A DNA stretch of 64,000 nt. It comes from a virus (taxonomy: Duplodnaviria; Heunggongvirae; Uroviricota; Caudoviricetes). Numbering within the stretch: the stretch's first letter is position 1; every line of letters begins with the position of its first letter. Under the pieces are notes generated by a model that saw nothing but the letters and a program-made list of their open reading frames with translations, searched no databases and had not been told where the DNA came from. Below, piece after piece: positions 11,104-64,000 of the stretch. Position numbers and translations under genes: made by a program. The DNA is taken from the IMG/VR virus record IMGVR_UViG_3300031417_000379; one strand, written 5' to 3'.

Positions 11104-11267
11104 TAAGGTCTCCTCTAAGCTTTTGCCGATCTTATCATGAGAAAGTTAGGTTGGCAATCGGTAACAAACGCTCTAGATGACAGTTTAAGCGTTTGTAAAG
11201 CTAGGATGACAGGTTGTACGGCTCTTCGCCAATCTACTGTTAGCGACTGATCTCGTCACTTAGAAGC
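11104..11267. promoter_or_regulatory. 164-bp intergenic region inside the array with a 9-bp inverted repeat and gatgacag direct repeats
   Basis: acaaacgct(11164-11172)/agcgtttgt(11188-11196) inverted repeat; gatgacag at 11176-11183 and 11205-11212; the only sizeable gap in the 12-gene array, so a candidate internal promoter/operator. Confidence 0.35.
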
Positions 11268-26434: not shown

Positions 26435-29400
26435 TCACTCCCCGTTAGATGGGTTATCAGCCTGCGGTCCCGGCAGGCCTCCGCCTGGACGGGTAGGAAT
26501 ACCCCCGCCAGGTCTCGGGGCCGGCGGTGTTGACGGCGGTGTGTCATTGAAAGTCGGAGTTGTCGGAGCAGCCGGCGCCTCAGGCGCAAGCCTTACTAGA
26601 TTCCTGATCTGTTCTTCGATCTTTCGCGCAATAGCGTTAGTACCAGCACCGCTGTTTCGAGCGTTCTTAGCTGTCGACTTAATTAGCTCCTGGTACTTTG
26701 CGATCTCCTTAGCCTGTTCAGTAGTCTGCGGAGCCGCCTTTGCGAGTTCGTTAGCCATATCGACTAGCTTATCGAGACTCTGGTTAATAGCAAAGTCCTC
26801 AGACGTCTTCGGCTTCTTTACCATCGGAGCATCGTCTGCTGTCAAGACGCTTTGGCTGCGAGCGATTCCGGCTTGAACACGCTCGTTATCCTTGATAGCC
26901 TTCTCGTGGTCTTTAGCAGCAGATTGAGCGTCACGAGTTGCATCCTTGACATCACGACGAGCCTCGCGCGACTCACGACGAGCCTCGTCAGCCTCCACTC
27001 GCATCTTGTCAAGCGCCTCCTGAGCTCGAGTCTCGGCTTCCTTAGCTGCCGCATCGCGGGCTATGGCGCCGAGGCTCGAAGAGAGCTTAGTCTCTAGACG
27101 CTGTCGAGCGTTCTCATACATTTCCGGAGTGATTTCCTTGCCTGGCTCAGGAGCGTTCATGCGCTTTTCAAGCTGCTCGAGCTGGCCTCTGGTTTCACGA
27201 ACCACATCGTCCTGACCTCGAGCGTATTCAGCTCTCATTGCCGAGTCGCTCTGTGCAAGTCGAAGCTGTTCTACTGCGGCTCTAACAGCTCGATCAGTGA
27301 GCTCGATGTTGTTATTAGCCTCACCTCTAGCCGTCTTAGCACTGTCCTGAGCCTGTGTAGCAGCTGCGTTACGGGCTTCGGCAGCCTGACGAGTAGCGTT
27401 TGTCTCCGGGAGACGCTCATCGAGAGTCATGCCGGTACGCGATACCGAAGCTGTTTCACGCATTGCGGCAGCGGCACGCTCACGCAGCGTCGGAGCCGAA
27501 GCTTCTGTAGCTTCAAGTCCGTCTGCCTGCTTGAACGCGGTGGAGACGCCCTTACCGATTTCCTGCGCCTCATCCATAGCCTTACGGTTGTCTCTACCCG
27601 TCGGAAGCTTTCCAGGGCCGAGGTCCTGCATCTGCTGGAACATCTTGTCAGCGGTCGCGCGGTTACCGGCAGCCGCAGCCTCAGCAGTACGAGCACGGGT
27701 TCGTGCAGCCTCAGCCTCAGAATCGAGCGAGGACGCCTTCTCCTGTACAACCTGAGTGTTAATTCGCATCTCACCTGCAGCCTCGGTAGCGCGAGTAACA
27801 CCGTTCTCAGCCATAGTGATTCGGATGTCTGCGTTATCCAGATCACGACCGGCGTTCATAGCCTGCTTGTTCGCGTCGAGAACAGCGTTCTCGTTGAACT
27901 TCTGGATAGTGCCGTCATCGTTTACGAACTGCGGGTCGAGACGCTTCTCATTGTTAAGCTTAGCGTTGTAAGCGCTCTCTTCACGCTTCCAGTCCTTGAG
28001 CTTTTCAGGAGTGTTCGTGGCGCCGTTGTAGATCTGACCAGCCTGAACCTTAGCATCGTCACGCTGTTTCTCAAGGCGAACGAGGTTAACCGTATCTCCT
28101 CGAGCTCCAGCAAGCTTCGCCTGAAGACCAAGAGCCTGTACATCGGCCATAAGCTTCTTGAAATCGCTCATGTCCTTACCGAAGGTTCCGTCGGCCAAGC
28201 CGCTTTCGGCTACGGCTTTCTCAAGCTCTGTATGAACAGCTGCTTTAGTGGATTCCGTGTCAAGCTTTAGATCAGCGTCAGCGGCTACATTCTCAAGGCG
28301 CTGTTTGTCTAGGTTAGCATCACGAAGTTCACTTTGAGCTTCTCCGATACCGTTAACCGCTTTATCTTGATCAGCGCGTGCAGTCGCTAGATCGTTATCA
28401 GAGAAAGCCTGAGCCGCCTTGGCGCTGTTGTCTGCATCACGATCAAGTGCAGTTGCTGTGCTTTCTGAGCGCTTTGCAGTGTCTCCAGCACGAGTAGCCT
28501 CGCGGTTAAAGTCAGTCATGTTGTCGCGCTTCTGTCGTTCAGTAGCCTGAGCAGTACGCCCGACGAGACCAGGAGCGGAGCGGAGTTCGTTCTGTGCAGC
28601 GATAGCAGCACCCTGACCCATCTTGCTAATTCCACCTGCAGCGAAACCACCAAGCGCACCGCCAACAATGGAGCTAGGCATCTTAGCAGCCTTGTCGCCC
28701 AGTTGTCGAGCACTTGCACCCATCATGGGGATCTTCTGGTCAAGCACGTTAGCCATACGCTCTCCACCGAGGTTCACACGACTGAAGGTCTCAACGATTT
28801 CCTTACGGTACATCCAGAGGACCATCGAGAGGATACCGACAAAGAGCAGAGCAGACATAGGATCAGCCGCACCGAGAACGGCGCTATAAAGAGCAAGCGA
28901 GACGAGCAAGAAGATGGCTGAAGCCAGGTACTTCAAGATCGAAGCTAGAATTGTCTCAAGCCAGCCGAGCATGATCTTCTTTCCCCGGGTCGGGTGCATA
29001 CCCACCAGGATGAAGAGCGGGGCGAAGATCATAAGAATCACTGCAGTGAGGTAGTACATGAGAGCAGTGATGGCTACAACCGAGATGAGGATTCCACCAA
29101 GGATGGTTGAGACAACAGCAACGATACCCTGAGCGAACTGCTGGCCACCGTTACTCCAGATCGGCCACATCTTGTCGCTAGAAGCGACTGTGGTGATCAG
29201 GTTGTACCAAGCTGGGTCAAACTGCGTTGGAGTGTTGCTCGTTGTCTGTCCCGCCGGAGTGACCTTCATTTGCATGAGCATGTTGTAGACAGCAAGGTTA
29301 CAAACCTTGGAGCCTCCGGACTTAGACTCAAGCCACTTACCATCGTAGCCGTTCGCGCTACCGGTGGTCTGTAGGGAGTAGCAGAACTTATTCGGGTCAA

Positions 29401-30670
29401 CGCCGGATTTTGCTACGGCCTTCCCGGCGACAGTGTCAGCGTTCTTTACCTCAAGCTGGTCAAGATTAGTGCCGAAAGCGCCCTTAGCGTAGTTCTGTAG
29501 GATAAAGGTCTTCCAAATGGTGCAACCCATGCTATTGACTGCTAGCCCGGTGAGCTGATCCGCTGTTGCACCACTAGCATCTGATACGCAGACACCCTTG
29601 TCAGCGGTTAGGGCCACGCCATCAGATGTCTTGGTTCCGAAGCCCGCTCCGCTAAAGCAGTTAGCTCCGTTAAACGCTCCGATCACACAGCCACTTACTG
29701 TGTTCGAGGCCACCATCGGTGCTTTCGCGAGCATGCTTGGGTTAAGGAGTACGGCTAAGCCGATGATGAACGATACCGCGAGCCAAACGGCCTGACCAAG
29801 CGCATCACGGAAGCGTCGCTTAACAACACCGGTGTAGAGCACGCCGAGCGCAGTCACCATGACAACAATGAGCACGAGTGGCTTATAGATGCTGTTGGTA
29901 AGCGAACCGATGAGGCCGGTGTCGCTAGTGTTCGGAGTACCACCGATGATACGAACTAGATCAATACAGCCGTCTGCTGCCGGAGTATTCGGATCACAGA
30001 TGAATGAAGAGTTAAAAGCGTTGGTGGCTAGCCAGGTAACAGTTGTCTGGATAGCGTTAGCAGCTCCGAGCCCAATCCCGTTAGCCACGTTAGTGACGAA
30101 AGTCTGCTCCCAGAAGCAAGTACCGGTGTTGCGCTCGCCGGTGAGCTTATCCTTGATGTCTCCCCAGTTAGTTTTGTAGGTCTGAGGAAGAATGCCGGCG
30201 GTACTGTCGGACGATCCCTTACCGGTGCCGTCGTCAAGAGCCTTACCAGCGAGCCCATTCTGATTGAGCACATCAGCGTACGGCTTCACGAAGAAGTCTG
30301 ACTCAGGGCCTGGCCCAATGCCGGTGTAGTTTGTCCACGCAGGAGCACCGACTACTTCGTTGATGGTGAACGTGCGGCCCTTAAGCTCCGGATAAAGCTT
30401 TCCGCCCCAGGTGCCGGCACCCCAGGGGCCACGTTCGTCCATGTTTCCGCCGATAACGGTGGTACAGCTCATGCCGAGGCCCGCGCTAGCGGTGGTTACG
30501 TGCTTCGTACTGCTAGCATCGATAGCCAGCGCACCGGCGCCGATACCGATGAGTACCGTCGCTACGGCCGCTAACGCTGCTATAGACGAAGTGAGCCTTG
30601 TCTTGAGGCTTCTGACGCGCGTCCTGTCGGTTGCACCGATGTAGTTGGCGCCTTTGGTTCGAAGCTTCAA
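26435..30670 (-). CDS. 1411-aa polytopic membrane protein (VirB6/TrbL-like, tentative) with ~750-aa coiled-coil and Pro-rich C-terminal tail
   Basis: Signal-like N-terminus, many TM helices in the first ~640 aa, then long A/R/D/E-rich coiled-coil; immediately upstream of the CHAP/transglycosylase gene (Tn916 orf15-orf14-like pairing); a tape-measure role cannot be excluded. Confidence 0.8.
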   Translation of the reverse strand: MKLRTKGANYIGATDRTRVRSLKTRLTSSIAALAAVATVLIGIGAGALAIDASSTKHVTTASAGLGMSCTTVIGGNMDERGPWGAGTWGGKLYPELKGRTFTINEVVGAPAWTNYTGIGPGPESDFFVKPYADVLNQNGLAGKALDDGTGKGSSDSTAGILPQTYKTNWGDIKDKLTGERNTGTCFWEQTFVTNVANGIGLGAANAIQTTVTWLATNAFNSSFICDPNTPAADGCIDLVRIIGGTPNTSDTGLIGSLTNSIYKPLVLIVVMVTALGVLYTGVVKRRFRDALGQAVWLAVSFIIGLAVLLNPSMLAKAPMVASNTVSGCVIGAFNGANCFSGAGFGTKTSDGVALTADKGVCVSDASGATADQLTGLAVNSMGCTIWKTFILQNYAKGAFGTNLDQLEVKNADTVAGKAVAKSGVDPNKFCYSLQTTGSANGYDGKWLESKSGGSKVCNLAVYNMLMQMKVTPAGQTTSNTPTQFDPAWYNLITTVASSDKMWPIWSNGGQQFAQGIVAVVSTILGGILISVVAITALMYYLTAVILMIFAPLFILVGMHPTRGKKIMLGWLETILASILKYLASAIFLLVSLALYSAVLGAADPMSALLFVGILSMVLWMYRKEIVETFSRVNLGGERMANVLDQKIPMMGASARQLGDKAAKMPSSIVGGALGGFAAGGISKMGQGAAIAAQNELRSAPGLVGRTAQATERQKRDNMTDFNREATRAGDTAKRSESTATALDRDADNSAKAAQAFSDNDLATARADQDKAVNGIGEAQSELRDANLDKQRLENVAADADLKLDTESTKAAVHTELEKAVAESGLADGTFGKDMSDFKKLMADVQALGLQAKLAGARGDTVNLVRLEKQRDDAKVQAGQIYNGATNTPEKLKDWKREESAYNAKLNNEKRLDPQFVNDDGTIQKFNENAVLDANKQAMNAGRDLDNADIRITMAENGVTRATEAAGEMRINTQVVQEKASSLDSEAEAARTRARTAEAAAAGNRATADKMFQQMQDLGPGKLPTGRDNRKAMDEAQEIGKGVSTAFKQADGLEATEASAPTLRERAAAAMRETASVSRTGMTLDERLPETNATRQAAEARNAAATQAQDSAKTARGEANNNIELTDRAVRAAVEQLRLAQSDSAMRAEYARGQDDVVRETRGQLEQLEKRMNAPEPGKEITPEMYENARQRLETKLSSSLGAIARDAAAKEAETRAQEALDKMRVEADEARRESREARRDVKDATRDAQSAAKDHEKAIKDNERVQAGIARSQSVLTADDAPMVKKPKTSEDFAINQSLDKLVDMANELAKAAPQTTEQAKEIAKYQELIKSTAKNARNSGAGTNAIARKIEEQIRNLVRLAPEAPAAPTTPTFNDTPPSTPPAPRPGGGIPTRPGGGLPGPQADNPSNGE

Positions 30671-30871: not shown

Positions 30872-32299
30872 TCAGTCGTGCTCTAGAATGCCAGCAGCAA
30901 TCTCAGCAACACGCGAACGCTCGGTCTTCGTTAAGGTGATGTGAGCGAAGATGTCCGTATCCTTTAGCGAGTCGATGACTGACCAAATGTCAGCATCCTT
31001 ACCGGACTTTAGGAAACGGTTGTCAACCTGAGCAGAGTCGGCGGTGAGAACGATCTTCGTCCCCTGGCCGGCTCGCGAAAGGATGTTCAGAATCTCGGAT
31101 CGGCTGAAGTTCTGAGCCTCTTCAAGAATCATAAAGGTACGAGCAAGCGAGCGACCACGGAGATAAGTGATCGGAGCGATCTCTACCATCTCTCGCATCT
31201 TCTTCGACTCTTCCTTCTGCTTTTCACGAGCAGCCTGAGTTGCGTTCTTCGGGAGTGGCTTCTCAAGGCGCCCGAGGGTGTCGATAGCGTCAAATACAGC
31301 GCCAGCCCAGGGGCCCATCTTCTCATCGACGCTTCCCGGGAGGAATCCCATCTCCTGACCCTGACCAAGCTCGTGGAGGGAACGGAAGATCATGATCTTC
31401 TCATACGTCCCGGCCTTTAGCTCGCTAAGAGCAGCTGCGATAGTAAGAAGCGTCTTTCCGGTACCGGCGCCACCACCAACCGAAACAACGGGGAGCTCCT
31501 CCGGAGATGCGGTAAGCAGTTCGAGGAGTACGTTCTGCTCGATCGTCTTACCGGTAACCTTCATGGCCTTCTTCTTGTGACCAACCTTAGTGATCTTTTT
31601 GTTGGAGACAAGAACGGCGGCCTTGGCTGGCTCACCCTGGATGGTGAACTCGACAAAGCTGGTGCTCGGTGCATCTTCAGGAAGATTGGCAAGCACGTAA
31701 GCCTCTAGCTCGGCATCAACGCCGTCGCTGTAAAGACCGAAAGCGTCAACATCTTCGTTCTTCACGTCGATTACGAAGCGCCCCTGGAACGGCTTCTTGA
31801 GATTACGAGTAGAGGAGTACTCAAAAGCCTCAAGATCGAGCTCAAGCGAAGCGTGTAGACGCATCGGCATGTCGTTGGAAAGGAGTACAACATTCTCACC
31901 CTCCTCGCGCAGGTTGACAGCAACGGCTAGAATTGTGCTGTCGTTGGTTCCGTTCTGCAGGTGCTCAGGGAGTGAGGTCTGGCGTGAGTGGTTCGGCTCG
32001 ATCTGAATGCGAACGCCGGGGTGATCCTCAAGCTCGATTCCCGCCTTGAGCTTGGAAGCATCGGTGATGCGGTAGTTCTCGATGAGTCGCAGCCATTCAC
32101 GTGCCAGGAAGCCCAGAGTGGCGTGAGTCCGCTTTTCCTCAAGCTCTCGAACGACTACGGCTGGAATAACAACCTTACAATCGCTTAGATTCTCGAGGAG
32201 GAACGTCCCTGCAATAAGCAGTGAGGACGTGTCGCTAACTACAACCTTCCCTTTCAAAACTTCGGTTAATGAGCTGGTCTGGATCTTCGAAGATGGCAT
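30872..32299 (-). CDS. phoH: PhoH2-like ATPase (N-terminal PIN domain + PhoH-like P-loop ATPase)
   Basis: Walker A GGGAGTGKT, PhoH-like C-terminal region, and an N-terminal PIN-like acidic-residue segment (VVSDTSSLL..). Confidence 0.85.
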   Translation of the reverse strand: MPSSKIQTSSLTEVLKGKVVVSDTSSLLIAGTFLLENLSDCKVVIPAVVVRELEEKRTHATLGFLAREWLRLIENYRITDASKLKAGIELEDHPGVRIQIEPNHSRQTSLPEHLQNGTNDSTILAVAVNLREEGENVVLLSNDMPMRLHASLELDLEAFEYSSTRNLKKPFQGRFVIDVKNEDVDAFGLYSDGVDAELEAYVLANLPEDAPSTSFVEFTIQGEPAKAAVLVSNKKITKVGHKKKAMKVTGKTIEQNVLLELLTASPEELPVVSVGGGAGTGKTLLTIAAALSELKAGTYEKIMIFRSLHELGQGQEMGFLPGSVDEKMGPWAGAVFDAIDTLGRLEKPLPKNATQAAREKQKEESKKMREMVEIAPITYLRGRSLARTFMILEEAQNFSRSEILNILSRAGQGTKIVLTADSAQVDNRFLKSGKDADIWSVIDSLKDTDIFAHITLTKTERSRVAEIAAGILEHD

Positions 32300-33117: not shown

Positions 33118-33723
33118 TTAGTTCCTGTTGACGAGAGCGGAGTCGTTAAGGTTAACCTCGGTTGTGGTAGTGACACGCGTGGTCATTACGCCGTCGAGGC
33201 CCCCGCCGGCCTTAACATTAGCGTTACCGGCAGCACGTAGGAGTGTGAGACCGGAGCCAGGAACACCGGCGTACTTCCACTGAACATCACAGAACGCCTG
33301 CTGTCCGATGAAGTTTGACTTGCTCGGGCCACAAGTGACCTTAGTAATAGTCACATTAGTAAGCCCAGCAGAAGTGCTAAGGTTAGCCATAAGCTGGCAC
33401 TCGATGGCGGTGTTCTTCGTCATCGGGTTACCACTAATCTGAACGTTCGGGTTATTCACTAGCCCCGAACATGGATTAACAGCTGAACCGTAAGCCTTCT
33501 CAAGTTTAGTCTCTTGAGTGTTCGTACCGTTACCACCGAAGATAGAAACGGTACGAACAGCATCACGAGTTGAGCTTAAGATTACGTTGCGGTTCATAAA
33601 GAAGATCGAAGTATCGACAATCGTAATGAGAATTGCAACAATGAGCGGGATGACAATGATGGTAGACACCAGGGTAGAGTCACCCCGGTCACGCATTCTG
33701 CGCTTGAGTTTGGAAAACAGCAT
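33118..33723 (-). CDS. TadE-like protein (paralog of the preceding gene)
   Basis: N-terminus MRDRGDSTLVSTIIVIPLIVAILITIV matches the same pattern. Confidence 0.55.
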   Translation of the reverse strand: MLFSKLKRRMRDRGDSTLVSTIIVIPLIVAILITIVDTSIFFMNRNVILSSTRDAVRTVSIFGGNGTNTQETKLEKAYGSAVNPCSGLVNNPNVQISGNPMTKNTAIECQLMANLSTSAGLTNVTITKVTCGPSKSNFIGQQAFCDVQWKYAGVPGSGLTLLRAAGNANVKAGGGLDGVMTTRVTTTTEVNLNDSALVNRN

Positions 33724-33795: not shown

Positions 33796-34665
33796 TCAGC
33801 CGGCAAACGCCTGAAGCTGCTTTACCTGCTCCTGGAGTCGACTAATCTCGTCAGCGTAAGACTCGCACTGAGAGCAATTAAAGACTCCCGGAGGGTTACC
33901 CCAGTTATTGTCGGCCACGTCAATGATGGAAACGTAGAAACGACGGCGTGCGTCTAGATTAAGGTGCTGATCAGCAGCGCTGTTGGGAGTCTGATCAAAG
34001 ATTAGCATACGAAGATAGTCAGTGGTGGACAGGCATAGACGCTGTGCACGGAACTTAACCTTCTCAGCTTCAGCGTAAGTCATACGGCCCTGAAGTCGCA
34101 CCCCACGCTTATCACCGGTCTTTGAAACTAGCTTGTCGAGCTTTTTCATGAGATCAACGAGCTCGCGCTCCATGATCGCCACCTGCTCCGCATCATCGTG
34201 ATCTTCGCCCTCTTCGAGAGCAACCTCGATCATCTTCTTACGGTTCTTCAGGTCCTTCTGGCCTTTCGAGAGGCCGTCTAGCTCATCAAGAGCTTTCTCA
34301 GCAATCTCACGCCAGTCAGCCATGTTCGGAGTACCCATTGCTCGTGAGCGGATGAGCGCGCCAAGAGTAGTGGATTGACCAGTAGCCTTAATCGCGCGAA
34401 CCTCACCGTCGAGGATAGCTCGCTCGCCTGCTGAAAGAGCGATCGATACACGCTGATCCAGCGGGGCACCCTTGCGACGCCGCGCTGCGGTGCGAGGCTT
34501 CCAATCTTTGAAGATCTCGATGAGGTCAGTCTGTCCTCGGCGTTCTAGGATCTTTAGCTTCTGATCTACAGACAACGCTTCTCCAGCGGTGTTATAGCTC
34601 TTCGAAGCGTGATCGTGACGCTGATCGTTGAACTTCCTCGTCAGGTTCTCGGTGGTGTGAGCCAT
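33796..34665 (-). CDS. MobC-like relaxosome accessory protein (two RHH-like repeats)
   Basis: Two copies of the MobC-type motif: RVSIALSAGERAILDGEVRAIKATGQSTTLGALIRSRAM and RMTYAEAEKVKFRAQRLCLSTTDYLRMLIFD. Confidence 0.5.
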   Translation of the reverse strand: MAHTTENLTRKFNDQRHDHASKSYNTAGEALSVDQKLKILERRGQTDLIEIFKDWKPRTAARRRKGAPLDQRVSIALSAGERAILDGEVRAIKATGQSTTLGALIRSRAMGTPNMADWREIAEKALDELDGLSKGQKDLKNRKKMIEVALEEGEDHDDAEQVAIMERELVDLMKKLDKLVSKTGDKRGVRLQGRMTYAEAEKVKFRAQRLCLSTTDYLRMLIFDQTPNSAADQHLNLDARRRFYVSIIDVADNNWGNPPGVFNCSQCESYADEISRLQEQVKQLQAFAG

Positions 34666-39102: not shown

Positions 39103-41679
39103 TCAAAGCTCAGGTAGACTCATGTCTCCAATATTCGGAAGTGATGCATCTGCAGGCTTTTTCTGTTGCGGCGCAGTTGGAATACCCGTAGGGCGAGTGG
39201 GAAGACCGACTCGCTTTGGAGCGCCTGACTGTGAGCTTTGAGCAGGGCTAGGAGGCTGCACCAGCGGCTTAGACGGCGCGGGAGCCGCCGCAGGTGTCGT
39301 CCCAAATAGTGAGTCGAGACCGTCGCTATCTGTCAGCTCTGGCTTTTTCTGCGGGCTCTTTGGACCTACAGGCTTACGAAGCGGAGGAGTCGGCGCCGGT
39401 GCCGCACCGCTAAAGATAGAGCTTAAGGTCTCCGGCTTGTGCTCCTCATCTTCTGACTCGAGTAATTCAGCCGGCGCCTCAGTCATGATCCATTCGTCGT
39501 CTTCCTCGTGATAAGTCGAGAAATCATCCTCTTCGGCGTTACGAGCCGGGAAGTTGAACATCTGGCGCTCTTCTTCGGGATCGAACTCATCAAAGTTCAC
39601 GTCTGCTACTGCCTGCTGACGAGTGTAATCGTGCTCAAGGGCTGTAGACGAATCTTTAGCCTTCTCAACTGCCGGCTTAGGGCGGCGCGCGAGTTCTTTC
39701 TGAGCGCCACTGTAATAGTCAGCGAGCACCGCCACCGGAGGAACCATCCAAACAGAGCGTGCAAGTGCTCCGCCCCCGCGCTTAGAGTACTTCGGATCTG
39801 CCGTTGTCTTCGTAACCCAAACAGCTGATGACTTGAAGCCGTTCACCGGGTCTGGCGAGGAAAGCTTCATGAACTCTGACGGTGGGTAAACCCAACGCTC
39901 TTCCTCACGCGCGGCCACCCGGCTGTCCATGCTTCGTGAACGATTGTAGCTCAGGAATGAGCTGTCGTTCTCATTAGTTCTTGAGTAAACCGTGACAAAG
40001 TGTTTTCCAAGAAGCTTTGAGAGGCGTGTAGCTGAGTCCTCTGTTGAGCCGGCGTGAGCGATGAAGTTACCACAGGTGTCAAGGATAGAGTTAAGGTATG
40101 ACTCCCCAGCTTTCTCAGCTGAGGCTACCACCTGATCGAAAGACTGCTGAGCAATGGTCATGGCCATCTTTGACTCACGTGACTTCTCGAGAAGCGCTGT
40201 AACTGCATCCGGCGGGACCGCCTGGAATTCGTCAACGTAGATGCTTACTTCGTTGTCTGCCTGAGCGTTACGACGAAGAGCTGAGATGTTCGTGAGATCC
40301 GAGAAGATCATTGATCCCACGTACTGAGCGAACTCCGGCTCCGAGTCAGAGTTGAGAGAGAACATAATGACGTTTCCCGGCTGCTTGGTGAGCTCGAAGA
40401 GATCAATCTCTCGATCTCCAGGAGCGTTGCCGGTTCTCATCCAACGGCCGTACTCCGAAGCTGTGATGGTTCGCATCTGGCCTTGGAGCTCAGTGTAGGC
40501 TTGAGTAAGAGCGCCTTTAGACTTAAGCGCCTCACCAATCTCGATAGCGTTCTTTGCGACCGGTGAGTTGACCGGCACTGATTTCCGGACATCGTTGATT
40601 CCACCTTCGCCTACCGGAGTGTAGGTGTACTTGAAAGTTTCGGGGAAGCGCTTGTCATCCGAGTTAGCGTCAACAAGTTCGTTCATGCCGTTGCCGGAAA
40701 CAGCTGAAGCTAACTGAGCTATGCCACCGTGATCCCAGTCGATGCTTCGAGCAATTTCACGGTTTCCGTACTTGAACATGGCAAAAGTTACCTGGAGTAA
40801 CTGCTGCATGGCTGTCTTGTAGACTGCAGCAGCGCTGTCATACTCGCGCATACCGAGAACCATGTCAGCTTTAGACGTAGGAGTACCCGAGCGTAGGGGA
40901 TCGTAGTAGCACTGCCCCTTCGAGCGGGGGATGTCGTAGTCCTCTGGATCGCCGTTGACAAAGTGGTAGAACTCTCTGCCGTTCTCTTCGGCGAACGCAG
41001 CAGCCATAGCTGCGAACTTCGGCGAACGCTTAAAGTCGATGACCACTACGGTCTTGCCCATTTCAATGTCAGAGTGCATGAGACTCTGCATGGTGATACT
41101 CTTACCGGAACCGGTCTGGCCGGTAATGAACGTATGCTTAGCCGCCTCTGTAGAGTAGCGCGAAACCACCTCATCAGTTTTCTCGTCAATTCCCATAGGA
41201 GAGCGCTTCACAGTGGTAAGAAGGCCGTTTTTGAGCTTCTGAATGTTCTTTTTGCGCTCGAGAATCTGTAGAGGCGTACGGCGGTAAGAGAACCTATAGC
41301 GCCATGAGCCTTCTAGCTGAGTTAGGTACGGGTTACGCTTTAGTCGACGAGCTTCTAACCAAACAAAGCCGTACCCGGTCGGTGCACCTAGTACGACACT
41401 AAGTCCAATCCATGCTGGAATTAGCGACGGTAGATACTTGGTGAAGTTTGATAGATCACCGAAGAGCTGTGAAAGTCCGCTTACTCCAATACCAAGAGTT
41501 ATGAGCCCAATAATCCCCACCGCGGCGGCGACCGCGCTGACCACCGTCGGACGATTCCGGTGGTAGCGGAATAGATACCAGAGTGAGTACGCGACGATGG
41601 CACCGGGGAGGAAAACCAGCCCCAGAACGATTAGAATCGGCCACGGAGAACTCTGCTTGGCGTCTTCATCATCGGCCAT
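39103..41679 (-). CDS. FtsK/TraG/VirD4-like coupling-type ATPase with 3 N-terminal TM helices and a Pro-rich C-terminal tail
   Basis: Walker A FITGQTGSGKS (~aa 190) after N-terminal TM helices; Walker B-like IYVDEFQAV; 858 aa. Confidence 0.75.
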   Translation of the reverse strand: MADDEDAKQSSPWPILIVLGLVFLPGAIVAYSLWYLFRYHRNRPTVVSAVAAAVGIIGLITLGIGVSGLSQLFGDLSNFTKYLPSLIPAWIGLSVVLGAPTGYGFVWLEARRLKRNPYLTQLEGSWRYRFSYRRTPLQILERKKNIQKLKNGLLTTVKRSPMGIDEKTDEVVSRYSTEAAKHTFITGQTGSGKSITMQSLMHSDIEMGKTVVVIDFKRSPKFAAMAAAFAEENGREFYHFVNGDPEDYDIPRSKGQCYYDPLRSGTPTSKADMVLGMREYDSAAAVYKTAMQQLLQVTFAMFKYGNREIARSIDWDHGGIAQLASAVSGNGMNELVDANSDDKRFPETFKYTYTPVGEGGINDVRKSVPVNSPVAKNAIEIGEALKSKGALTQAYTELQGQMRTITASEYGRWMRTGNAPGDREIDLFELTKQPGNVIMFSLNSDSEPEFAQYVGSMIFSDLTNISALRRNAQADNEVSIYVDEFQAVPPDAVTALLEKSRESKMAMTIAQQSFDQVVASAEKAGESYLNSILDTCGNFIAHAGSTEDSATRLSKLLGKHFVTVYSRTNENDSSFLSYNRSRSMDSRVAAREEERWVYPPSEFMKLSSPDPVNGFKSSAVWVTKTTADPKYSKRGGGALARSVWMVPPVAVLADYYSGAQKELARRPKPAVEKAKDSSTALEHDYTRQQAVADVNFDEFDPEEERQMFNFPARNAEEDDFSTYHEEDDEWIMTEAPAELLESEDEEHKPETLSSIFSGAAPAPTPPLRKPVGPKSPQKKPELTDSDGLDSLFGTTPAAAPAPSKPLVQPPSPAQSSQSGAPKRVGLPTRPTGIPTAPQQKKPADASLPNIGDMSLPEL

Positions 41680-46227: not shown

Positions 46228-46767
46228 TTACTCTCCAGCTAGAAAGCGCAGGTAGTGCCGGTACTCTTCAATAGAGTCCTCTACATCCAGCAATGCTCGG
46301 TGATCCTGACGCTTGTTATAGCGTGGTGCTCCACGAGTCTCCTGGAGAACTGTAGCCAATCCAGTAGCATCCACAGTCATGTGAGTAAGGAGCGAACTGA
46401 ACAGAGGCAGGTGCATCTTAGCAAAGCTTCTATCTGTACCCACTGAGTTTCCGCCGAGGAATAACAGTGTCCTCGGCGGAAGCTCAGTAAGCATGGTGTA
46501 GAGCTCCTGATCGATAAGCTCAGCAGGCTTTGATTCTTTCTCCCAAAGATCCTGCCAGAGATTCGATGTAGTATGCATCCTCTGAACAAGAGGATTTGCA
46601 GAGCTAATCACGGCTTTAAGGTCAGGCACAGTGACCAGCGAACTGTAAGCATCGGAAATCGGTTCGCCGTGGAAGTCGGTGACAATAGCGCCGATCTCGA
46701 GAAGTGTGTCCACTTCAGGAGTTAGGCCGTTGGCCTCCACGTCAAGCCATACGATGGCTTTTCCCAT
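46228..46767 (-). CDS. oligoribonuclease-like DEDD 3'-5' exonuclease
   Basis: N-terminus IVWLDVEANGLTPEVDTLLEIGAIVTD matches the Exo I motif of Orn-type exonucleases. Confidence 0.7.
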   Translation of the reverse strand: MGKAIVWLDVEANGLTPEVDTLLEIGAIVTDFHGEPISDAYSSLVTVPDLKAVISSANPLVQRMHTTSNLWQDLWEKESKPAELIDQELYTMLTELPPRTLLFLGGNSVGTDRSFAKMHLPLFSSLLTHMTVDATGLATVLQETRGAPRYNKRQDHRALLDVEDSIEEYRHYLRFLAGE

Positions 46768-54736: not shown

Positions 54737-55681
54737 TTAATGCGAAGCTTTAGTCTTCTTCTCGAAGAGACCGATGAGCGGGTGGATGCTGTAGAAGAGA
54801 ACCACACCGAGAACAGCGCCGAAGAGTGTCGATGCAGCGGTGTCACCAAGCCAGCCCAGTACAGGGTGAAAGTGGTGGAAGAACTCTTCGACATGATGAA
54901 GACTATCGGAGAAGATGCCTACTCCGATGTCACCAAGCGACTTCCAAACCAGGTGACCGCCGACCCAGAGCATAGCGAGAGTACCGACCACGGTGAGGAA
55001 AGTGAATACACCGGGCATGGTCTTTACGATGCTGAGACCGAAGAGGCGAAGGCTTCGACGCTCTGTACCACGAACAAGAGCGAGGCCGATGTCATCGAGC
55101 TTCACGAGAAGGGCGACAGCGCCGTAGACTGCGATGGTCATCACGAAACCGATGAGTAGGAGCATGAGAAGCTTCTTGATCCAGTTGTCCTCATCCACCG
55201 ATGAGAGCGCAATGAGCATGATCTCGGTGGAGAGAATTAGGTCTGTACGCACAGCCGAAGAGATCATGCTCTTTTCAAGATTCGTCCCTGCAGTAAGGTG
55301 ACCATCCTCGACGTGTTCCTTCACCAGCTTCAGCCACTCGAGAACCTTCTCAGCGCCTTCGAAGACCAGGTAAGAGCCACCGACCACGAGCAAGAATGGA
55401 AGTACCTGCGGCGCGAGCCAGGAGAGAATCATGGCGAGCGGGATGATGAAGAGGAACTTGTTACGAAAGCTTCCGAGAGCGATCTTGATGACCACGGTGA
55501 GCTCGCGCTTTGGGGAGATGCCCTGGACATATTGAGGAGCCACGGCGGTGTCGTCTACTATGACCCCTACGGTCTTTACGGAAGCCTTGCCGGCACCGAG
55601 AGCCACGTCATCGATACCGACAGCGGCTGACTTGGCGAGCAAGGCGATGTCGCGGAGGAGCAATGAGAAGCCAGAGGCCAT
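54737..55681 (-). CDS. DUF808/YedI-family inner-membrane protein
   Basis: N-terminus MASGFSLLLRDIALLAKSAAVGIDDV..KASVKTVGVIVDD and central FEGAEKVLEWL closely match the E. coli YedI pattern. Confidence 0.8.
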   Translation of the reverse strand: MASGFSLLLRDIALLAKSAAVGIDDVALGAGKASVKTVGVIVDDTAVAPQYVQGISPKRELTVVIKIALGSFRNKFLFIIPLAMILSWLAPQVLPFLLVVGGSYLVFEGAEKVLEWLKLVKEHVEDGHLTAGTNLEKSMISSAVRTDLILSTEIMLIALSSVDEDNWIKKLLMLLLIGFVMTIAVYGAVALLVKLDDIGLALVRGTERRSLRLFGLSIVKTMPGVFTFLTVVGTLAMLWVGGHLVWKSLGDIGVGIFSDSLHHVEEFFHHFHPVLGWLGDTAASTLFGAVLGVVLFYSIHPLIGLFEKKTKASH

Positions 55682-58021: not shown

Positions 58022-58702
58022 TCAGCTAAGGCCGATCTTGGTGTGAAGCTCGCAAAGCTCTTCAGCTGTGGGCTTCCACTCGAGCAAGTTCATGGCCATG
58101 TGACCCTGACCCACGGCGTCGTCGAGAGCATGGTGTGTGTGAGGTACATCGGTCTTGAGCAAGTGCTTCGGCATCCAACGCTTGGTTGCCCTGGAATACG
58201 GAACATCAGCCTTGGTTGCGTAGGTTTCTTTGAGATCCTTCACCCCGCTGAAGCCGAAGGGGCTAGTGACGCCGAAGTGATCCAGATACCAGCTCACGAA
58301 CTTCCAATCGAAAGCAGCCGGATAAGCAGTGAAGAGAGGACGTGCTCCTTCGATGCGCTTCTGCGCGAGGTTCACCCAGCGAGCAAATTGCTGGATAGCA
58401 TCGGCAGCCTCAACGCCGTGGTCCTTCATCCACTGAAGGCGAAGCTCTCCAGTAGGGTCGTCGGCTTCGAAACCTTCCAGCAAGCCCACCTTAATTGCGT
58501 CGGGGATGAAGTTGTCGTTGAGAGGCTTGAACTCAATGTAGAACGTGTTCTGAGCGTCATGCCGGTCGAAGCGAACGTAGTCGCCGGACTTCAGACGCGC
58601 TCCAGCAATGAACGCGCCGAGTGAAGACATGGAGTAATCTCCAGGGTTCGGACCGGTGGCCTCGATGTCAACAGAGATGTAGAACTCAGAATAGTTACCC
58701 AT
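58022..58702 (-). CDS. DnaQ-like DEDDh 3'-5' exonuclease
   Basis: Exo I ISVDIEATG near the N-terminus and Exo III HHALDDA near the C-terminus. Confidence 0.8.
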   Translation of the reverse strand: MGNYSEFYISVDIEATGPNPGDYSMSSLGAFIAGARLKSGDYVRFDRHDAQNTFYIEFKPLNDNFIPDAIKVGLLEGFEADDPTGELRLQWMKDHGVEAADAIQQFARWVNLAQKRIEGARPLFTAYPAAFDWKFVSWYLDHFGVTSPFGFSGVKDLKETYATKADVPYSRATKRWMPKHLLKTDVPHTHHALDDAVGQGHMAMNLLEWKPTAEELCELHTKIGLS

Positions 58703-60149: not shown

Positions 60150-60584
60150 CTAGTCTGCAAAGACAAAGTCGAGATGAAGCCCCTTATCGCCGATGGCGTA
60201 AGGCTTCTCAATGATGATTGCGCCTTGATCCTCGTAGACACGACGAGAGCTTTCCTTGCTAGCGCCGTAGAGAGGGTAGACGTTACGGTCCTTAGCAAAG
60301 TTCACAATGGCTTTAAGGAACTCATCACTTTTACCGCTTCCACGGTGGATCGGATCAATAGCCATCGCCCTTAGTCTCCAGTTGATGTTGTCAGCTCCAA
60401 CTTTCTTCATGTCAGGGACGATGCTCGCGATACCAGCAACTCGGTCATCGTGGACCCAGATAATGTGCTTGGCAGCGTCGGATGTGTCGCCGGTGTAGAG
60501 AGGAGCGTCGTCTGAAAAGCCGAGCCAACGACGACGGTACAGTTGTACCTCGCTGAGTTCGACGGAGAACAGGGCCATAGTCAT
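60150..60584 (-). CDS. GNAT-family N-acetyltransferase
   Basis: Motif A-like RLRAMAIDPIHRGSGKSDEFLKAIVNFA. Confidence 0.7.
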   Translation of the reverse strand: MTMALFSVELSEVQLYRRRWLGFSDDAPLYTGDTSDAAKHIIWVHDDRVAGIASIVPDMKKVGADNINWRLRAMAIDPIHRGSGKSDEFLKAIVNFAKDRNVYPLYGASKESSRRVYEDQGAIIIEKPYAIGDKGLHLDFVFAD

Positions 60585-60627
60585 GGGTCCTATATCAACT
60601 AGCTTTCAGGTATGTTACCATGGCGTT

Positions 60628-60999
60628 ATGACTCACTACCCAGTCGTTCTCATCGATGACCTTCGCTCATTCGTGCAGAAGCGAGACGATGCTCTTGTCC
60701 TGCGTACGCTTGCTGAGGCTCTCTCCTGGTTCACCGATGTGAAGTCCGAGGACACCGTTGGCCAGCTTTGGCTCGACCACGACCTCGGCAAGAACGACAA
60801 GGGCGAAATCATCGAGATCATCCCCTTCGTGGCGGAGCTCGAAGAGCGCGCCTACTTCGGTACTGCGCCGGAGATCGAGCAGGTCATCGTGCACTCGTCG
60901 AACAACCAGCGTGGTCCGAAGATGGTGGTTCCGCTTTCTCGTTACTTCGCGGTGCAGACCATTGCGCAGTCTGAGCTGGACAACTACCTGGTTCAGTAG
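60628..60999 (+). CDS. CPR-like (cyclic-phosphate processing receiver) domain protein (tentative)
   Basis: VVLIDDLRSF...QLWLDHDLGKNDKGE matches the hhLDDxR ... LDHDLG signature of CPR domains; start taken at ATG 60628 because the longer ORF overlaps the divergent GNAT start. Confidence 0.5.
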   Translation: MTHYPVVLIDDLRSFVQKRDDALVLRTLAEALSWFTDVKSEDTVGQLWLDHDLGKNDKGEIIEIIPFVAELEERAYFGTAPEIEQVIVHSSNNQRGPKMVVPLSRYFAVQTIAQSELDNYLVQ

Positions 61000-61010
61000 T
61001 CACAACACGT

Positions 61011-61057
61011 ATACTTCTATCCCCGGATGCAGTAATAGCATCCGGGGATAGAAGTAT
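61011..61057. terminator. bidirectional terminator, perfect 20-bp stem (atacttctatccccggatgc / gcatccggggatagaagtat)
   Basis: Exactly between convergent 60628..60999(+) and 61061..61795(-). Confidence 0.7.
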
Positions 61058-61060
61058 GTT

Positions 61061-61795
61061 TTACGCAGTCTTACGAGCATCCAGTCGTCGCTCAAGCTCC
61101 GCCATAAAAGTGTGATAGCGATCTGCGTTCTCGAGCTTCTCTCGGATGTATTCTAGCCGACGCCCTACGCTAGAAGCGATGGTCTCTAGCATCTCATCGA
61201 TCGACGTAATCTCTCCGATGTTAGCCTGGTCGTACCTCGAAAGTGTCTGATCATTCTCATAATAGCTCTTTGGGAACACTTCGAAGCGTTGAAGCGTCTC
61301 AAGCTGCGCTTCAGCATCCTCCGGGGTAAAAGCTTGCTGTACGAAATTCGGAAGCTCGTCATACTTTGCGTTGTATTCGTTCACCTGATCGATCCTGTCA
61401 AGCATGGCTCGATAGGCCTTAAGGGCGTCCACCACATCCTTGACAATGAGCCCGCGATTGGACTTGGAAAGCCGTTCATCGTGCTCGAAGACAGCCTTAG
61501 CCACCAGACGAAGCTCAGACGGCGTCCAGCTTCTAGGCTCCTTAGTGAGCACCGGAAGAAGTTCCTCAGCTGATTCAGCCTCATCCTGAAGCTCAAGCTC
61601 TTTAGCAAAATCGATGTTGTAGAACCCGTGCATCGGTCCGGCTTCGAACATCTCATCGATAAACACGTCTACATCGTCACGCGGTGCCCGAGGAACACCG
61701 AAGCGCTCAAGCTTTCGAGCAAGGCTATCGTAAGCACTTCGGGCGTAAACAGCCTCTTCAGTAGCCTCGTAGCGCTTCGAGTAAAGCTCGTTCAT
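61061..61795 (-). CDS. hypothetical protein
   Basis: 244-aa ORF. Confidence 0.7.
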   Translation of the reverse strand: MNELYSKRYEATEEAVYARSAYDSLARKLERFGVPRAPRDDVDVFIDEMFEAGPMHGFYNIDFAKELELQDEAESAEELLPVLTKEPRSWTPSELRLVAKAVFEHDERLSKSNRGLIVKDVVDALKAYRAMLDRIDQVNEYNAKYDELPNFVQQAFTPEDAEAQLETLQRFEVFPKSYYENDQTLSRYDQANIGEITSIDEMLETIASSVGRRLEYIREKLENADRYHTFMAELERRLDARKTA

Positions 61796-62121
61796 AAAGC
61801 TGTTGATGTACTCGAGCGACTTCTGCTTCTCCAGCCCGGTATAGCTTCGGTACTCAAGACTCCGTACGAAGAAAGCGATCTGCTGCTCAAGCGCTTCGTT
61901 CTTCGAGATGTAGCTGAAACCGTACGAGCCGAAATCAAGCTTCTTCGCCAGGTTCTTCGTGAGGGTAAACCCCGGAGCGCCATACTTATCGAAGAACGAA
62001 CTTCGCGCCGTCTCGAGTGATTCATAGTGTATTCGCTATCTCCAAAGAGACAGCTGTCCGGCACTTCGCAAGAGTCGATTTTGCCGGTGAGACTGTTGAC
62101 ATGAAAACTAGCCATGTACAC
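61792..62121 (-). CDS. short HCCH-module protein (degenerate module)
   Basis: SFHVNSLTGKIDSCEVPDSCLFGDSEY...H keeps the H-C-C spacing; 109 aa. Confidence 0.55.
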   Translation of the reverse strand: MYMASFHVNSLTGKIDSCEVPDSCLFGDSEYTMNHSRRREVRSSISMALRGLPSRRTWRRSLISARTVSATSRRTKRLSSRSLSSYGVLSTEAIPGWRSRSRSSTSTAL

Positions 62122-62151
62122 AACTGTACATGGCTAGTCCTCAAACGTCAA

Positions 62152-62877
62152 TCAGCTGTTAAGCGAAGCCTGCGCCGCTTCCTTCGAGGTGAAGTGCGCA
62201 TCCTCGTGAGCTACCTTGCAGCTATCAGCACCGTTAGCACAGCGTCTAACAGCGTTAGCATCCGTAGTCACGTGGTACTGACCGGTACGCTTAAGCTGCT
62301 GTCTACGGGCTCTACGTGCTGCTACCGCCTCCTGGTACTTCACGAACGAGGCGTCAGCCTGCTCTTCGACTTTGCGAGCATCATCAACCTGAGCACGAGC
62401 TGCCTCAACAGCCTTCTCTGCGGCTTTGACTGCATCCTGCTTTACACGAAGCTCCTGAACGCTAGCCTGAAGCTCCTTATTGCGAACTTCAAGCTGGCCC
62501 TTCTTCTTTGCCATCTTGTGCTTCGCTACCTCGTGACGGATAAGCTTCGCGAAGTCTCGATCGGAGAAAGAGAGGATACGTCGATCAAGTGTGAAGTTAG
62601 AGAACTGGATACTGTTCTCACCGAGCTTCTCCACCTTCGGCGACCAGGACTGGAGGAACTTACCGAGATCGCCGAGGAACTCGTAGTGCTCAGCACGGAG
62701 GTAGTGAGTACCGAACTTCTTCTTAAGGACACTGTTGCCGACGTAGTTCAGGTGCTGAAGCCGGCGCGTGATGATGCGATCGGTAGCCTCATTCAGCTTC
62801 TCCTGCTCAAGCTTCATGCGTGCCTCAAACTCCTCACGAGCAGCGGCCAGGTTGTTGTAGTTAAGCTTTGCGTTCAT
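62152..62877 (-). CDS. coiled-coil protein with C-terminal HCCH module
   Basis: C-terminus YHVTTDANAVRRCANGADSCKVAHEDAHFTSKEAAQASL carries the same module found at N-termini elsewhere. Confidence 0.75.
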   Translation of the reverse strand: MNAKLNYNNLAAAREEFEARMKLEQEKLNEATDRIITRRLQHLNYVGNSVLKKKFGTHYLRAEHYEFLGDLGKFLQSWSPKVEKLGENSIQFSNFTLDRRILSFSDRDFAKLIRHEVAKHKMAKKKGQLEVRNKELQASVQELRVKQDAVKAAEKAVEAARAQVDDARKVEEQADASFVKYQEAVAARRARRQQLKRTGQYHVTTDANAVRRCANGADSCKVAHEDAHFTSKEAAQASLNS

Positions 62878-62902
62878 TATGGGATTCTCCTTCGCCCTCT
62901 GT

Positions 62903-63223
62903 TTAGTTCTTCTCGATGTGGTGCTTGCCGGCTAGCGGAAGCTTTCGCAGATACTTCTTAACGGCCTCGTTCGGTACGAACGCGACCGCTGTTAGTTCGT
63001 CCTCCAGGTCGGGCTCACGAAAAACAACGGTGTCGAACCCGTTGTGGTGAGCGTCCTGAAGGAGCGCCTCAAGCGACTCCGTGCAGGGAGTCTGGAGAGA
63101 AACGATAAACTGAGAGGTGCTGTGCCAGTTGGCAAAGCTTTCCCCTCGATGAAGTGCGAAATCAGCAACAGCGTGAGCGATCTGGGCAGTCTGCTGGCCC
63201 GATGAAAGCTTTGCGTGCGTCAC
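62903..63223 (-). CDS. PTH2-like (peptidyl-tRNA hydrolase 2 family) protein (tentative)
   Basis: 106 aa; GQQTAQIAHAVADFAL resembles the PTH2 GK.AAQ..HA motif. Confidence 0.45.
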   Translation of the reverse strand: MTHAKLSSGQQTAQIAHAVADFALHRGESFANWHSTSQFIVSLQTPCTESLEALLQDAHHNGFDTVVFREPDLEDELTAVAFVPNEAVKKYLRKLPLAGKHHIEKN

Positions 63224-63305
63224 TAAGTAGAGGGGATATCCTCGATCAGTCTAGAACATTTCCGTAGTACTCCAATTTCTTGATGGTGAATGATGCGTCA
63301 TATGA

Positions 63306-63378
63306 GGTGCCCCCAGTCAGGATCGAACTGACTCAGTTGGGTTTAGAATCCACCGCTCTACCATTGAGCTATAGGGGC
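63306..63378 (-). tRNA. tRNA gene; anticodon CUA (amber-reading) if the canonical 7-nt loop is used; anticodon stem has two mismatches
   Basis: Reverse complement folds with a perfect 7-bp acceptor stem (one G-U), 4-bp D stem with GG loop, 5-bp T stem with TTCGATC loop, U33 and A37; anticodon stem only 3 WC pairs flanked by G-A and A-C; 3' CC encoded. Confidence 0.55.
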
Positions 63379-63558
63379 GTATGAGAAAACTATATCATAC
63401 TGGCTTCGAGTATGCACCTCGAGCGTAAGATTTTTCTCAGATTTTCTAATTACGACTGTTAAGAGCAAGCCTCAAGACTCCACAGGCTGAGAGTACGAGA
63501 GCTATCAACACAATTACTCGCTATATCCTATCAAAGCTAGTAGCTAGCGCTCTTACTC

Positions 63559-63601: not shown

Positions 63602-64000
63602 TTACTTAGCGATGAAGCGGATATCCGTACGGAGACCAGCAGCGGTAGTGCCCTTCTTCGGAGCAACGAGAACAACCAGAGCGTAAGCCGACTTGCCCGG
63701 CTTCAGAACGGTCTTCGCCATGCGAGCGTTGACGATGCCACGAGCAGCGGTGGTGCCGGTACCCGGGAGGACCTGGATGCCGAGCCCGTTCGGAGCGACG
63801 GTGATGTTCTTCTTGCTCTTGTTGGTGAGGGTGATGACGATGGACTTGCTCGAGCCACCCTTCATCTTCGCCCAGGTGTTGTTCGCTGGAGTGACGTAGA
63901 GGTTCGGTCCGGAAACACGAGCGATGTTCTTAGCGCTTCCCGGTGCAGTAGCAACAACCGTGGTACTCGGCTTGGTTACTGCCTGAGCCTGAGCCGCCGG
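63602..64000 (-). CDS. partial CDS (5' end beyond window): Thr/Ala/Pro-rich linker + DUF4352-like beta-rich domain (tentative)
   Basis: Reading frame stays open to the window edge upstream of the annotated Met; C-terminal domain IVITLTNKSKKNITVAPNG...YALVVLVAPKKG resembles Ig-like DUF4352 lipoprotein domains. Confidence 0.55.
   Translation of the reverse strand, partial: PAAQAQAVTKPSTTVVATAPGSAKNIARVSGPNLYVTPANNTWAKMKGGSSKSIVITLTNKSKKNITVAPNGLGIQVLPGTGTTAARGIVNARMAKTVLKPGKSAYALVVLVAPKKGTTAAGLRTDIRFIAK

Follow-up and report, generated by a model that had tools for sequence, protein, structure and literature searches.

We analysed a 64,000-nucleotide stretch of viral DNA (IMG/VR record IMGVR_UViG_3300031417_000379; hereafter the window), which by exact sequence match corresponds to bases 206,812–270,811 of the 740,336-bp metagenomic contig ERZ27247408:k141_1142885. 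Near its right-hand end lie a tRNA, which we call an amber suppressor because its anticodon is CUA, and, on the same strand, a gene for a small protein with the fold of peptidyl-tRNA hydrolase 2 (PTH2). The main finding is that suppressor tRNAs and PTH2-like genes of this kind tend to occur together: the linkage is strong, it is recovered from either partner and it does not depend on lineage. The original prediction for this DNA had grouped a GNAT acetyltransferase, a receiver-domain protein, the PTH2-like gene and a tRNA as a module for tRNA repair or translation, and had omitted both the CUA anticodon and the tRNA–PTH2-like partnership, which is the most informative feature of the region. 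The conserved pairing is a new and testable result; a full-text search, which left most subscription journals outside its coverage, returned no paper that ties PTH2 to suppressor tRNAs. Because genes for RNA repair lie past the right end of the window, we also favour, on balance, the view that the region forms the left margin of an ~11-kb island that repairs tRNA ends and sustains translation in a giant phage-like element represented by the 740-kb contig. The tRNA and the PTH2-like gene are a separate two-gene unit within that island, with a much wider distribution. The two features are:

62903–63223, minus strand: divergent PTH2-fold protein of 106 aa (Pfam PTH2, PF01981; 29.7 bits against a threshold of 23).
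63306–63378, minus strand: amber-suppressor tRNA, anticodon CUA (ARAGORN; full-length match to the Rfam tRNA model, 58.2 bits against 29).

The linkage was examined from both sides. On the protein side, we scanned IMG/VR with motifs of the PTH2-like protein, which returned 80 loci, 66 of them non-redundant. Thirty-two of these 66 have a tRNA with a CUA, UUA or UCA anticodon within 1.5 kb of the gene. Suppressors account for 33 of the 86 tRNAs located within 1.5 kb of the gene, as against 5 of the 228 at greater distances (Fisher p = 2e-16). Among the anticodons in these loci CUA ranks first; the suppressors comprise 33 CUA, 3 UCA and 2 UUA tRNAs, and 36 of the 38 share the strand of the PTH2-like gene. 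Of the 49 loci with any tRNA, 29 have a suppressor as the one nearest to the gene, as do 10 of the 18 loci with at least five tRNAs; in 13 non-redundant loci the suppressor is the sole tRNA in up to 20 kb. On the tRNA side, we picked tRNAs solely by their anticodon-loop and T-loop pattern, in stored stretches with a mean length of 8.7 kb. A PTH2-like open reading frame (ORF) was present in 23 of 74 distinct CUA-tRNA loci, compared with 1 of 110 control loci chosen for a CAU tRNA (p = 1.2e-9), and in 17 of the 23 it lay within 1 kb of the CUA tRNA.

The loci that carry the pair span 24–67% G+C and hold 44 distinct suppressor sequences, and the spacing between the partners is often below 150 nt. 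Since the tRNA stands upstream of the gene in some loci and downstream in others, shared descent of a single syntenic block is an inadequate explanation. When the neighbours within 6 kb were clustered, no third conserved protein partner emerged, the next family being present in 11 of 69 loci. Among the four features grouped by the original prediction, this is the only pair conserved outside the lineage of the window. Within the lineage, loci L001–L006 share the arrangement, the PTH2-like ORF of L002 being uncalled in the annotation. In the window, where the tRNA is located 82 nt upstream of the gene, the two are probably co-transcribed. GenBank phages with the pair are Myrna, Nappy (Bxz1-like), LR756500 and LR756501; carriers of the pair include two huge uncultured phages.

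By a crude count, 37 of 49 CUA tRNAs beside a PTH2-like gene have a G1-C72 pair; among CUA tRNAs without such a gene nearby, the glutamine-like U1-A72 is the most frequent (7 of 20, also a crude count). This split hints at two classes of phage amber suppressor. An acceptor-stem identity shared by all the suppressors was considered and discarded, the sequences being heterogeneous. As a separate observation, the tRNA next to a PTH2-like gene, when it is not a plain suppressor, is often odd in some other way. It may have an anticodon unusual for bacteria, such as AAU (Ile) or ACC (Gly), or an 8-nt anticodon loop that contains CUA (ucua, ccua) or reads uucg (L041, 9813–9974; L060, 9903–9978; L055, 9834–9911; L053, 10280–10355; L059, 8256–8331).

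The suppressor is the sole tRNA in the window. It has a 7-nt anticodon loop, UUCUAAA, with U33 and A37–A38. Its CUA anticodon is invariant in the relatives L001–L006 and L009, and the acceptor stem has undergone compensatory changes in L001–L003 and L005. As a suppressor, the tRNA would have to be aminoacylated and to read UAG on the ribosome. We also observed that the 27:43 and 31:39 pairs of the anticodon stem are non-canonical, with A31·C39 retained in three relatives, so that three to four standard stem pairs remain; short anticodon stems have been tied to stop-codon reading in other tRNAs (PMC13092985).

The PTH2-like protein passes the PTH2 profile threshold, one of two profile results on which the original prediction had been made to depend. 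An AlphaFold2 model of moderate confidence (pLDDT 69.6) was compared with the PDB using Foldseek; the best 13 matches were all Pth2 structures, the top 12 having TM scores of 0.54–0.63 and probabilities of 0.99–1.00. The protein nevertheless scores only 19.3 bits against the NCBIfam Pth2 equivalog model NF003314, whose cut-off is 126, and its sequence indicates that it is not an orthologue of cellular Pth2. It belongs to a family of 742 cluster representatives (E ≤ 1e-10) with a near-invariant signature of Q14, H17, W33, E70-P71-D72 and T78. The near-invariance of Q14, H17, E70, D72 and T78 argues for catalysis, and the protein is likely to be an active enzyme. The clade turned up only in viral and metagenomic sequence, and a search for its motifs in 185,579 species genomes yielded no confirmed relative; it seems to be a divergent branch restricted to viral sequences. 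Of the best 150 family members, about 30 are longer than 200 aa, and the majority of the long ones have a C-terminal domain of ~190 aa with the pattern H..HDCGKP..H..D (representatives P0021–P0161; loci L015, L016, L035 and L071). This domain has no Pfam match. The one lead is a weak profile similarity (E = 0.0026) to the HD region of a tRNA nucleotidyltransferase, the A-adding enzyme of Aquifex. The fusions to this HD-like domain, some of which likewise sit beside suppressor tRNAs, point to tRNA 3′-end chemistry.

The remaining features of the region, from left to right, are:

60150–60584, minus strand: GNAT acetyltransferase of 144 aa (Pfam Acetyltransf_1, PF00583; 29.4 bits against a gathering score of 20.7).
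60628–60999, or from 60583, plus strand: standalone cREC (cyclic-phosphate-processing receiver) protein (Pfam cREC_REC, PF20274).
61011–61057, no strand: perfect inverted repeat of 20 bp with a 7-nt loop, between the convergent genes for cREC and the homologue of a 351-aa protein.
61061–62121, minus strand: frameshift-split homologue of a conserved 351-aa protein (seen on comparing its translation in three frames with the L001 protein).
62152–62877, minus strand: p241, directly downstream of the PTH2-like gene (tblastn and alignment).
63602–64000 and running off the window, minus strand: 3′ part of a DUF4232-like gene (tblastn against L001 p162, 74% identity; 162 aa in relatives).

All four genes of the original prediction are thus present where it had placed them, and each passes its curated threshold. 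The cREC gene is, as had been claimed, the only plus-strand gene in the right half of the window when long, non-overlapping ORFs are considered; the genes of the window are dense and nearly all on the minus strand. Its product scores 43.2 bits against PF20274 (cut-off 27, E = 6.5e-11) and matches phrog_1479 at 1.9e-12. In PHROGs, the best-matching families of both the cREC and the PTH2-like protein are phage families of unknown function. The signature by which the protein had been recognized, LDDxR followed by LDHDLG, appears as VVLIDDLR and LWLDHDLG. Both motifs are invariant across 11 homologues, every one of which has a precomputed PF20274 match, and in their alignment D25, D26, D65, H66, D67, H104 and N107 are invariant. 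The acidic residues typical of receivers are retained, with DD after strand 1 and D at the end of strand 3. The family assignment therefore stands; the acronym used for it, CPR, does not, as the published name is cRec or cREC (PMC7824862). The protein comprises 123 aa from the start at 60628, or 138 aa from an upstream ATG at 60583, and the former is the likelier start codon because the homologues begin at MTHYP. In keeping with a family that stays outside histidine-kinase two-component systems and accompanies genes for RNA-end or NAD processing, the gene is standalone, with no histidine kinase nearby, and has PNKP, 2H-SAK, Thg1 and RNase_T genes within 10 kb. A tblastn search of the phage collection found no relatives of cREC.

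The GNAT gene is divergently oriented relative to the cREC gene and adjoins it in L001, L002 and L102–L104. The protein had no NCBIfam or PDB sequence match, and no subfamily could be assigned. The inverted repeat at 61011–61057 has the features of a hairpin that is probably a bidirectional terminator; a simple terminator scan skipped it because it lacks a T-run. The 351-aa homologue is split into an ORF of 244 aa (61061–61795) and an N-terminal piece in another frame, with the frameshift near 62030. The 740-kb contig gives the same 244-aa call, and the L103 and L104 assemblies have an intact 351-aa gene; this is a true pseudogene, or else the sequences share an error of assembly. This homologue has no Pfam match. 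The N-terminal ~120 aa of p241 are conserved within the lineage, and its gene comes after the PTH2-like gene in L001, L002 and L003/L005, and after the CUA tRNA in L009. We considered whether p241 is a free-standing copy of the HD-like domain fused to other PTH2-like proteins, and rejected the idea on an hhalign probability of 0.4%. The window also contains just two exact copies of ACTAGCTTT, at 60598–60606 (plus strand) and 63533–63541 (minus strand), the one just upstream of the cREC gene and the other ~155 nt upstream of the suppressor tRNA. As a shared upstream motif of cREC and the tRNA it was discarded, its one-mismatch count being within shuffle expectation.

We examined 84 kb of the 740-kb contig, the window included. 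Past the right end of the window, the order is the DUF4232-like gene, a 258-aa ORF, an opposite-strand ORF of 354 aa, RNase_T, a 117-aa ORF, R2K ATP-grasp, a 132-aa ORF, the 2H-SAK phosphoesterase, PNKP, Thg1, ORFs of 394 and 246 aa, and YqaJ+RNase_T. The RNase_T, R2K ATP-grasp, 2H-SAK, PNKP and Thg1 genes sit 2–7 kb beyond the window. PNKP, which combines a kinase and a HAD phosphatase, has no copy within the window and is located 5.1–6.3 kb past its end on the same contig, so that one of the two kinds of partner that the original prediction expected elsewhere in the element is indeed present. The same neighbours accompany cREC homologues of 88%, 53% and 48% identity, whose contigs measure 149 kb, 89 kb and up to 765 kb. 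Because RNase_T, R2K, 2H-SAK, PNKP and Thg1 lie near cREC both here and in relatives, a reading in terms of RNA-end and tRNA repair fits the region. To this extent the original interpretation was reasonable, and it matches predictions already in print (PMC7824862). Its other half, that the GNAT, cREC and PTH2-like genes and the tRNA make up one conserved module, did not survive the comparison with other loci.

Several further observations concern the window at large. In addition to the genes of the island, the 84 kb encode a PIN-PhoH protein, an SNF2 helicase, a sigma-70 factor, DnaG, PrimPol and a GHKL ATPase whose likeness to rIIA is confined to the N-terminal domain. Three proteins are further RNA-directed candidates: the PIN-PhoH protein (30872–32299); an RNase_T paralogue of the island exonuclease (46228–46767), which shares 30% identity with it; and an Rv2179c-like 3′–5′ exoribonuclease (58022–58702), which scores a weak 24.4 bits, under the cut-off of 27. 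By far the strongest Pfam match of the window, at 330 bits, is a DUF808 membrane protein (54737–55681), whose gene has the look of a recent acquisition from a cellular source and might help to identify the host. At 5018–12572 there are ~12 consecutive genes of near-equal size (189–236 aa) with no Pfam matches. They were considered as a paralogue array, an idea we rejected as BLAST similarity was limited to 11268–11915 and 11916–12572 (23% identity). The window found no nucleotide relatives in INPHARED. Two more distant relatives of cREC occur on IMG/VR contigs of 345 and 437 kb.

How might such an island work? Judged by the families to which its enzymes belong, host defence enzymes would damage or block tRNA termini, and the PTH2-like enzyme would strip acyl or peptidyl groups from the 3′ ends. 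The cREC and 2H enzymes would open 2′,3′-cyclic phosphates, PNKP would remove 3′ phosphates and phosphorylate 5′ ends, the RNase T-like exonuclease would trim 3′ ends, and the Thg1-like enzyme would refill 5′ ends. The host CCA-adding enzyme and synthetases could then reuse the repaired tRNA. We infer that this set fits the repair of tRNA termini better than the resealing of broken anticodon loops.

For the suppressor tRNA and the PTH2-like enzyme, the reading that we consider most likely, with low confidence and weak support, is that both act on ribosomes held at UAG: by occupying the vacant A site, the suppressor would take the ribosome on to the next stop, and the hydrolase would recycle tRNAs from the abortive products. 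UAG is the one stop codon that is read only by release factor 1 (RF1), and RelE-type toxins, which cut codons in the A site, prefer UAG. Action on ribosomes held at UAG would account for the excess of CUA over UCA and UUA anticodons among the suppressors. A more specific proposal, which we put forward tentatively, is that the pair is a dedicated two-component device by which large standard-code phages take over or protect termination at UAG. Such a device might make termination independent of RF1; alternatively, it might keep RelE-type mRNA-cleaving toxins away from a vacant A site at UAG and at the same time recycle abortive peptidyl-tRNAs.

A number of results weigh against the repair island, its phage identity or the proposed role of the pair. 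Half of the protein-side loci have no suppressor within 10 kb. Most loci with the pair have no recognisable repair genes, which, together with the lack of a third partner, makes the pair independent of the island. The adjacency of GNAT and cREC is limited to close relatives. The RNA ligase that the original prediction expected as a partner alongside a polynucleotide kinase was not recognised: no ORF tested within the 84 kb has a Pfam or PDB-sequence match to one, and several ORFs of 350–400 aa in the neighbourhood of the island, searched in the same hunt, have no Pfam or PDB match at all. In the suppressor-bearing loci, back-up stops are not enriched after TAG, and TAG stops are not clearly avoided (11.7% vs 14.1%); both count against the proposed role because efficient read-through might select for back-up stops and for avoidance of TAG. 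The activities of cREC and of the PTH2-like clade are themselves predictions from sequence, and the active site of the clade is altered. In Sulfolobus solfataricus Pth2, K18 and D86 are reported to be catalytic (Fromant et al., 2005). In the window protein the residue aligned with K18 is Q, and most close homologues have Y there; in place of D-A-G stands an invariant E-P-D, beside a 4-residue deletion. Finally, the element is possibly something other than a phage. The 84 kb revealed no gene for a capsid, portal or terminase, and the window contains genes like those of type IV secretion systems, namely a TrbL/VirB6 domain in a 1411-aa protein (26435–30670), a TraG/TrwB-type coupling protein (39103–41679) and a NikA-like protein (33796–34665); the coupling protein had no match in the plasmid or phage collections. 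The element could be either a huge phage or a giant plasmid-like element.

Three other explanations have to be weighed. Recoding in phages usually comes with a CUA suppressor tRNA (PMC13037316, PMC7886860), and the tRNA of the window might by analogy let late genes use TAG as a sense codon, as code-15 phages do. We regard this as very improbable, and for the 84 kb seen it is largely refuted: TAG terminates 13 of the 70 genes of the window, the gene map is dense under the standard code, and treating TAG as sense brings no gain in ORF coverage in the window or in ~60 related loci, where it helps no more than dropping any other stop. Nor do we see programmed read-through fusions, since the extension past TAG enters the frame of the next gene in only 3 of 13 cases, as often as chance would give, and the sole case checked (53595/52749) is not conserved in L002. 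The same normal use of TAG, without back-up stops, can be turned into an argument for a different role of the hydrolase, as unrestrained suppression would extend many of the element's own proteins. The PTH2-like enzyme might act as a brake that deacylates aminoacyl-tRNA(CUA) or hydrolyses peptidyl-tRNA(CUA), keeping read-through of the element's own TAG codons low or timed, so that tRNA and enzyme would form an effector–regulator pair. The tight, same-strand linkage, often with less than 150 nt between the partners, is in keeping with this, and the altered active site could reflect an altered substrate. We nonetheless consider a brake improbable: it leaves the retention of the tRNA unexplained, the acceptor stems and discriminator bases of the suppressors are heterogeneous with no shared recognition element visible, and the fusions to the HD-like domain suggest a general clean-up of 3′ ends.

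The third alternative accepts the functional link between tRNA(CUA) and the PTH2-like gene and denies it to the rest, GNAT and cREC being unrelated accessories, of which cREC would process signals of the cyclic ADP-ribose (cADPr) type, produced by NAD-based defence, instead of RNA ends, and GNAT would acetylate a host protein. Those who defined cRec name cADPr as another possible substrate, and the domain occurs mainly with NAD/ADPr enzymes (PMC7824862); a YpsA/YAcAr SLOG gene further along the island likewise favours an NAD-defence role. GNAT is replaced beside cREC by an Rce1-like gene in L003–L006, and the distant cREC loci L010–L012 have neither a PTH2-like gene nor a CUA tRNA. On the other side, cREC keeps PNKP, 2H-SAK, Thg1 and RNase_T within 10 kb down to 48% identity despite rearrangements, and no ART, SIR2, TIR or Macro genes were seen near it. 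This alternative is in our judgement unlikely, though it deserves serious consideration, and on balance we retain the tRNA-end repair island with the suppressor–PTH2-like pair as a separate unit inside it.

The pairing bears on a wider question. Suppressor tRNAs recur in standard-code phages without known read-through targets, Xanthomonas phage XacN1 being an example (PMC5852040), and a specific protein partner conserved across 24–67% G+C gives an experimental handle on their role. If the proposed UAG-termination device were real, it would explain suppressor tRNAs in non-recoding phages, a question that genome papers, among them the one on XacN1 (PMC5852040), expressly leave open. The PTH2-fold clade is distinct and apparently restricted to viruses; GenBank gives it the name of the cellular enzyme, from which its altered active site and its fusions to the HD-like domain separate it. 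The island, for its part, adds a probable set for tRNA-terminus repair with no recognised ligase (Thg1, PNKP, 2H, cREC, RNase T and PTH2-like) to the predicted counter-defence repertoire of phages.

Comparison with known systems places both the island and the pair. The Pnkp–Rnl1 system of T4 repairs tRNA-Lys cut by the PrrC anticodon nuclease. As is proposed for the island, it uses a bifunctional kinase-phosphatase to heal tRNA ends as a counter-defence. Unlike T4, the island has no recognised sealing ligase, and its additional Thg1-like, RNase T-like and PTH2-like enzymes point to the repair of 5′ and 3′ termini and not of breaks in the anticodon loop. Jumbo phages have already been predicted to carry islands for tRNA-end repair: in 2021, Iyer, Anantharaman, Krishnan, Burroughs and Aravind assigned cRec, 2H, PNKP, Thg1 and PTH2 to phage RNA repair (PMC7824862). 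Their systems share with the island cRec, 2H, PNKP with its HAD phosphatase, Thg1, PTH2, R2K and GNAT, as well as the setting in a very large phage-like element, and in both cRec is standalone and linked to RNA-end enzymes. That paper ties cRec to RNA ligases, none of which is recognisable here. Hydrolysis of 2′,3′-cyclic phosphate or cADPr by cREC is a prediction in that defining paper, and the clearing of cyclic phosphates by cRec and the role of PTH2 as a rescue factor in jumbo phages are likewise predictions for which no experimental support is cited (PMC7824862). The paper regards PTH2 as a factor of general ribosome rescue, and the tRNAs that phages encode as substitutes for host tRNAs lost to cleavage; the word “suppressor” does not occur, and no tie between PTH2 and a tRNA is noted.

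The PTH2-like protein shares its fold, the AQxxHA motif and a conserved Trp with archaeal and eukaryotic Pth2 (1XTY, 1Q7S, 3ERJ, 1WN2 and 2ZV3), from which its clade differs by a loop deletion, Q or Y at the lysine position, E-P-D and the frequent HD-like fusion. Recoded crAss-like, Lak and jumbo phages (PMC7886860, PMC13037316) resemble the window in having a CUA tRNA whose loop is seemingly suited to efficient decoding; they differ in that neither the element of the window nor the loci with the pair are recoded. Phage XacN1 has two CUA suppressors, a PTH2-like domain in ORF364, Thg1 and PNKP (PMC5852040). Its suppressors are located in the terminal repeats, far from ORF364, so that the partners co-occur in the genome without being adjacent, and ORF364 differs from the peptidyl-tRNA hydrolase named in the paper, ORF295. 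The authors identified no read-through target genes (PMC5852040). Within ORF360–ORF364 (L344), the PTH2-like domain forms the C-terminus of the 280-aa ORF364; at a distance of four genes from this ORF is one annotated as glutamyl-tRNA amidotransferase.

The closest parallel to the pair itself is found in the cluster C mycobacteriophages Bxz1, Nappy and Myrna. Their “peptidyl-tRNA hydrolase” belongs to the same clade (32–40% identity to clade members), and a CUA tRNA, “tRNA-Other(cta)”, lies nearby on the same strand, as in the window. We found no published comment on this pairing. In Nappy, gp160 (“tRNA-Other(cta)”) comes 306 nt after gp159 (“peptidyl-tRNA hydrolase”), and in Myrna the CUA tRNA lies 130 nt downstream of gp84. 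The Myrna tRNA (L007, 6448–6519; record, 33522–33593) is annotated in GenBank as tRNA-Ser and is given the anticodon CUA by ARAGORN. The pair of the mycobacteriophages is embedded in large tRNA arrays, whereas the suppressor of the window stands alone. The PTH2-like gene occurs in more than 200 Bxz1-like cluster C1 mycobacteriophages, and the pair is thus available in genetically tractable phages, Myrna and the Bxz1-like group, which grow on Mycobacterium smegmatis.

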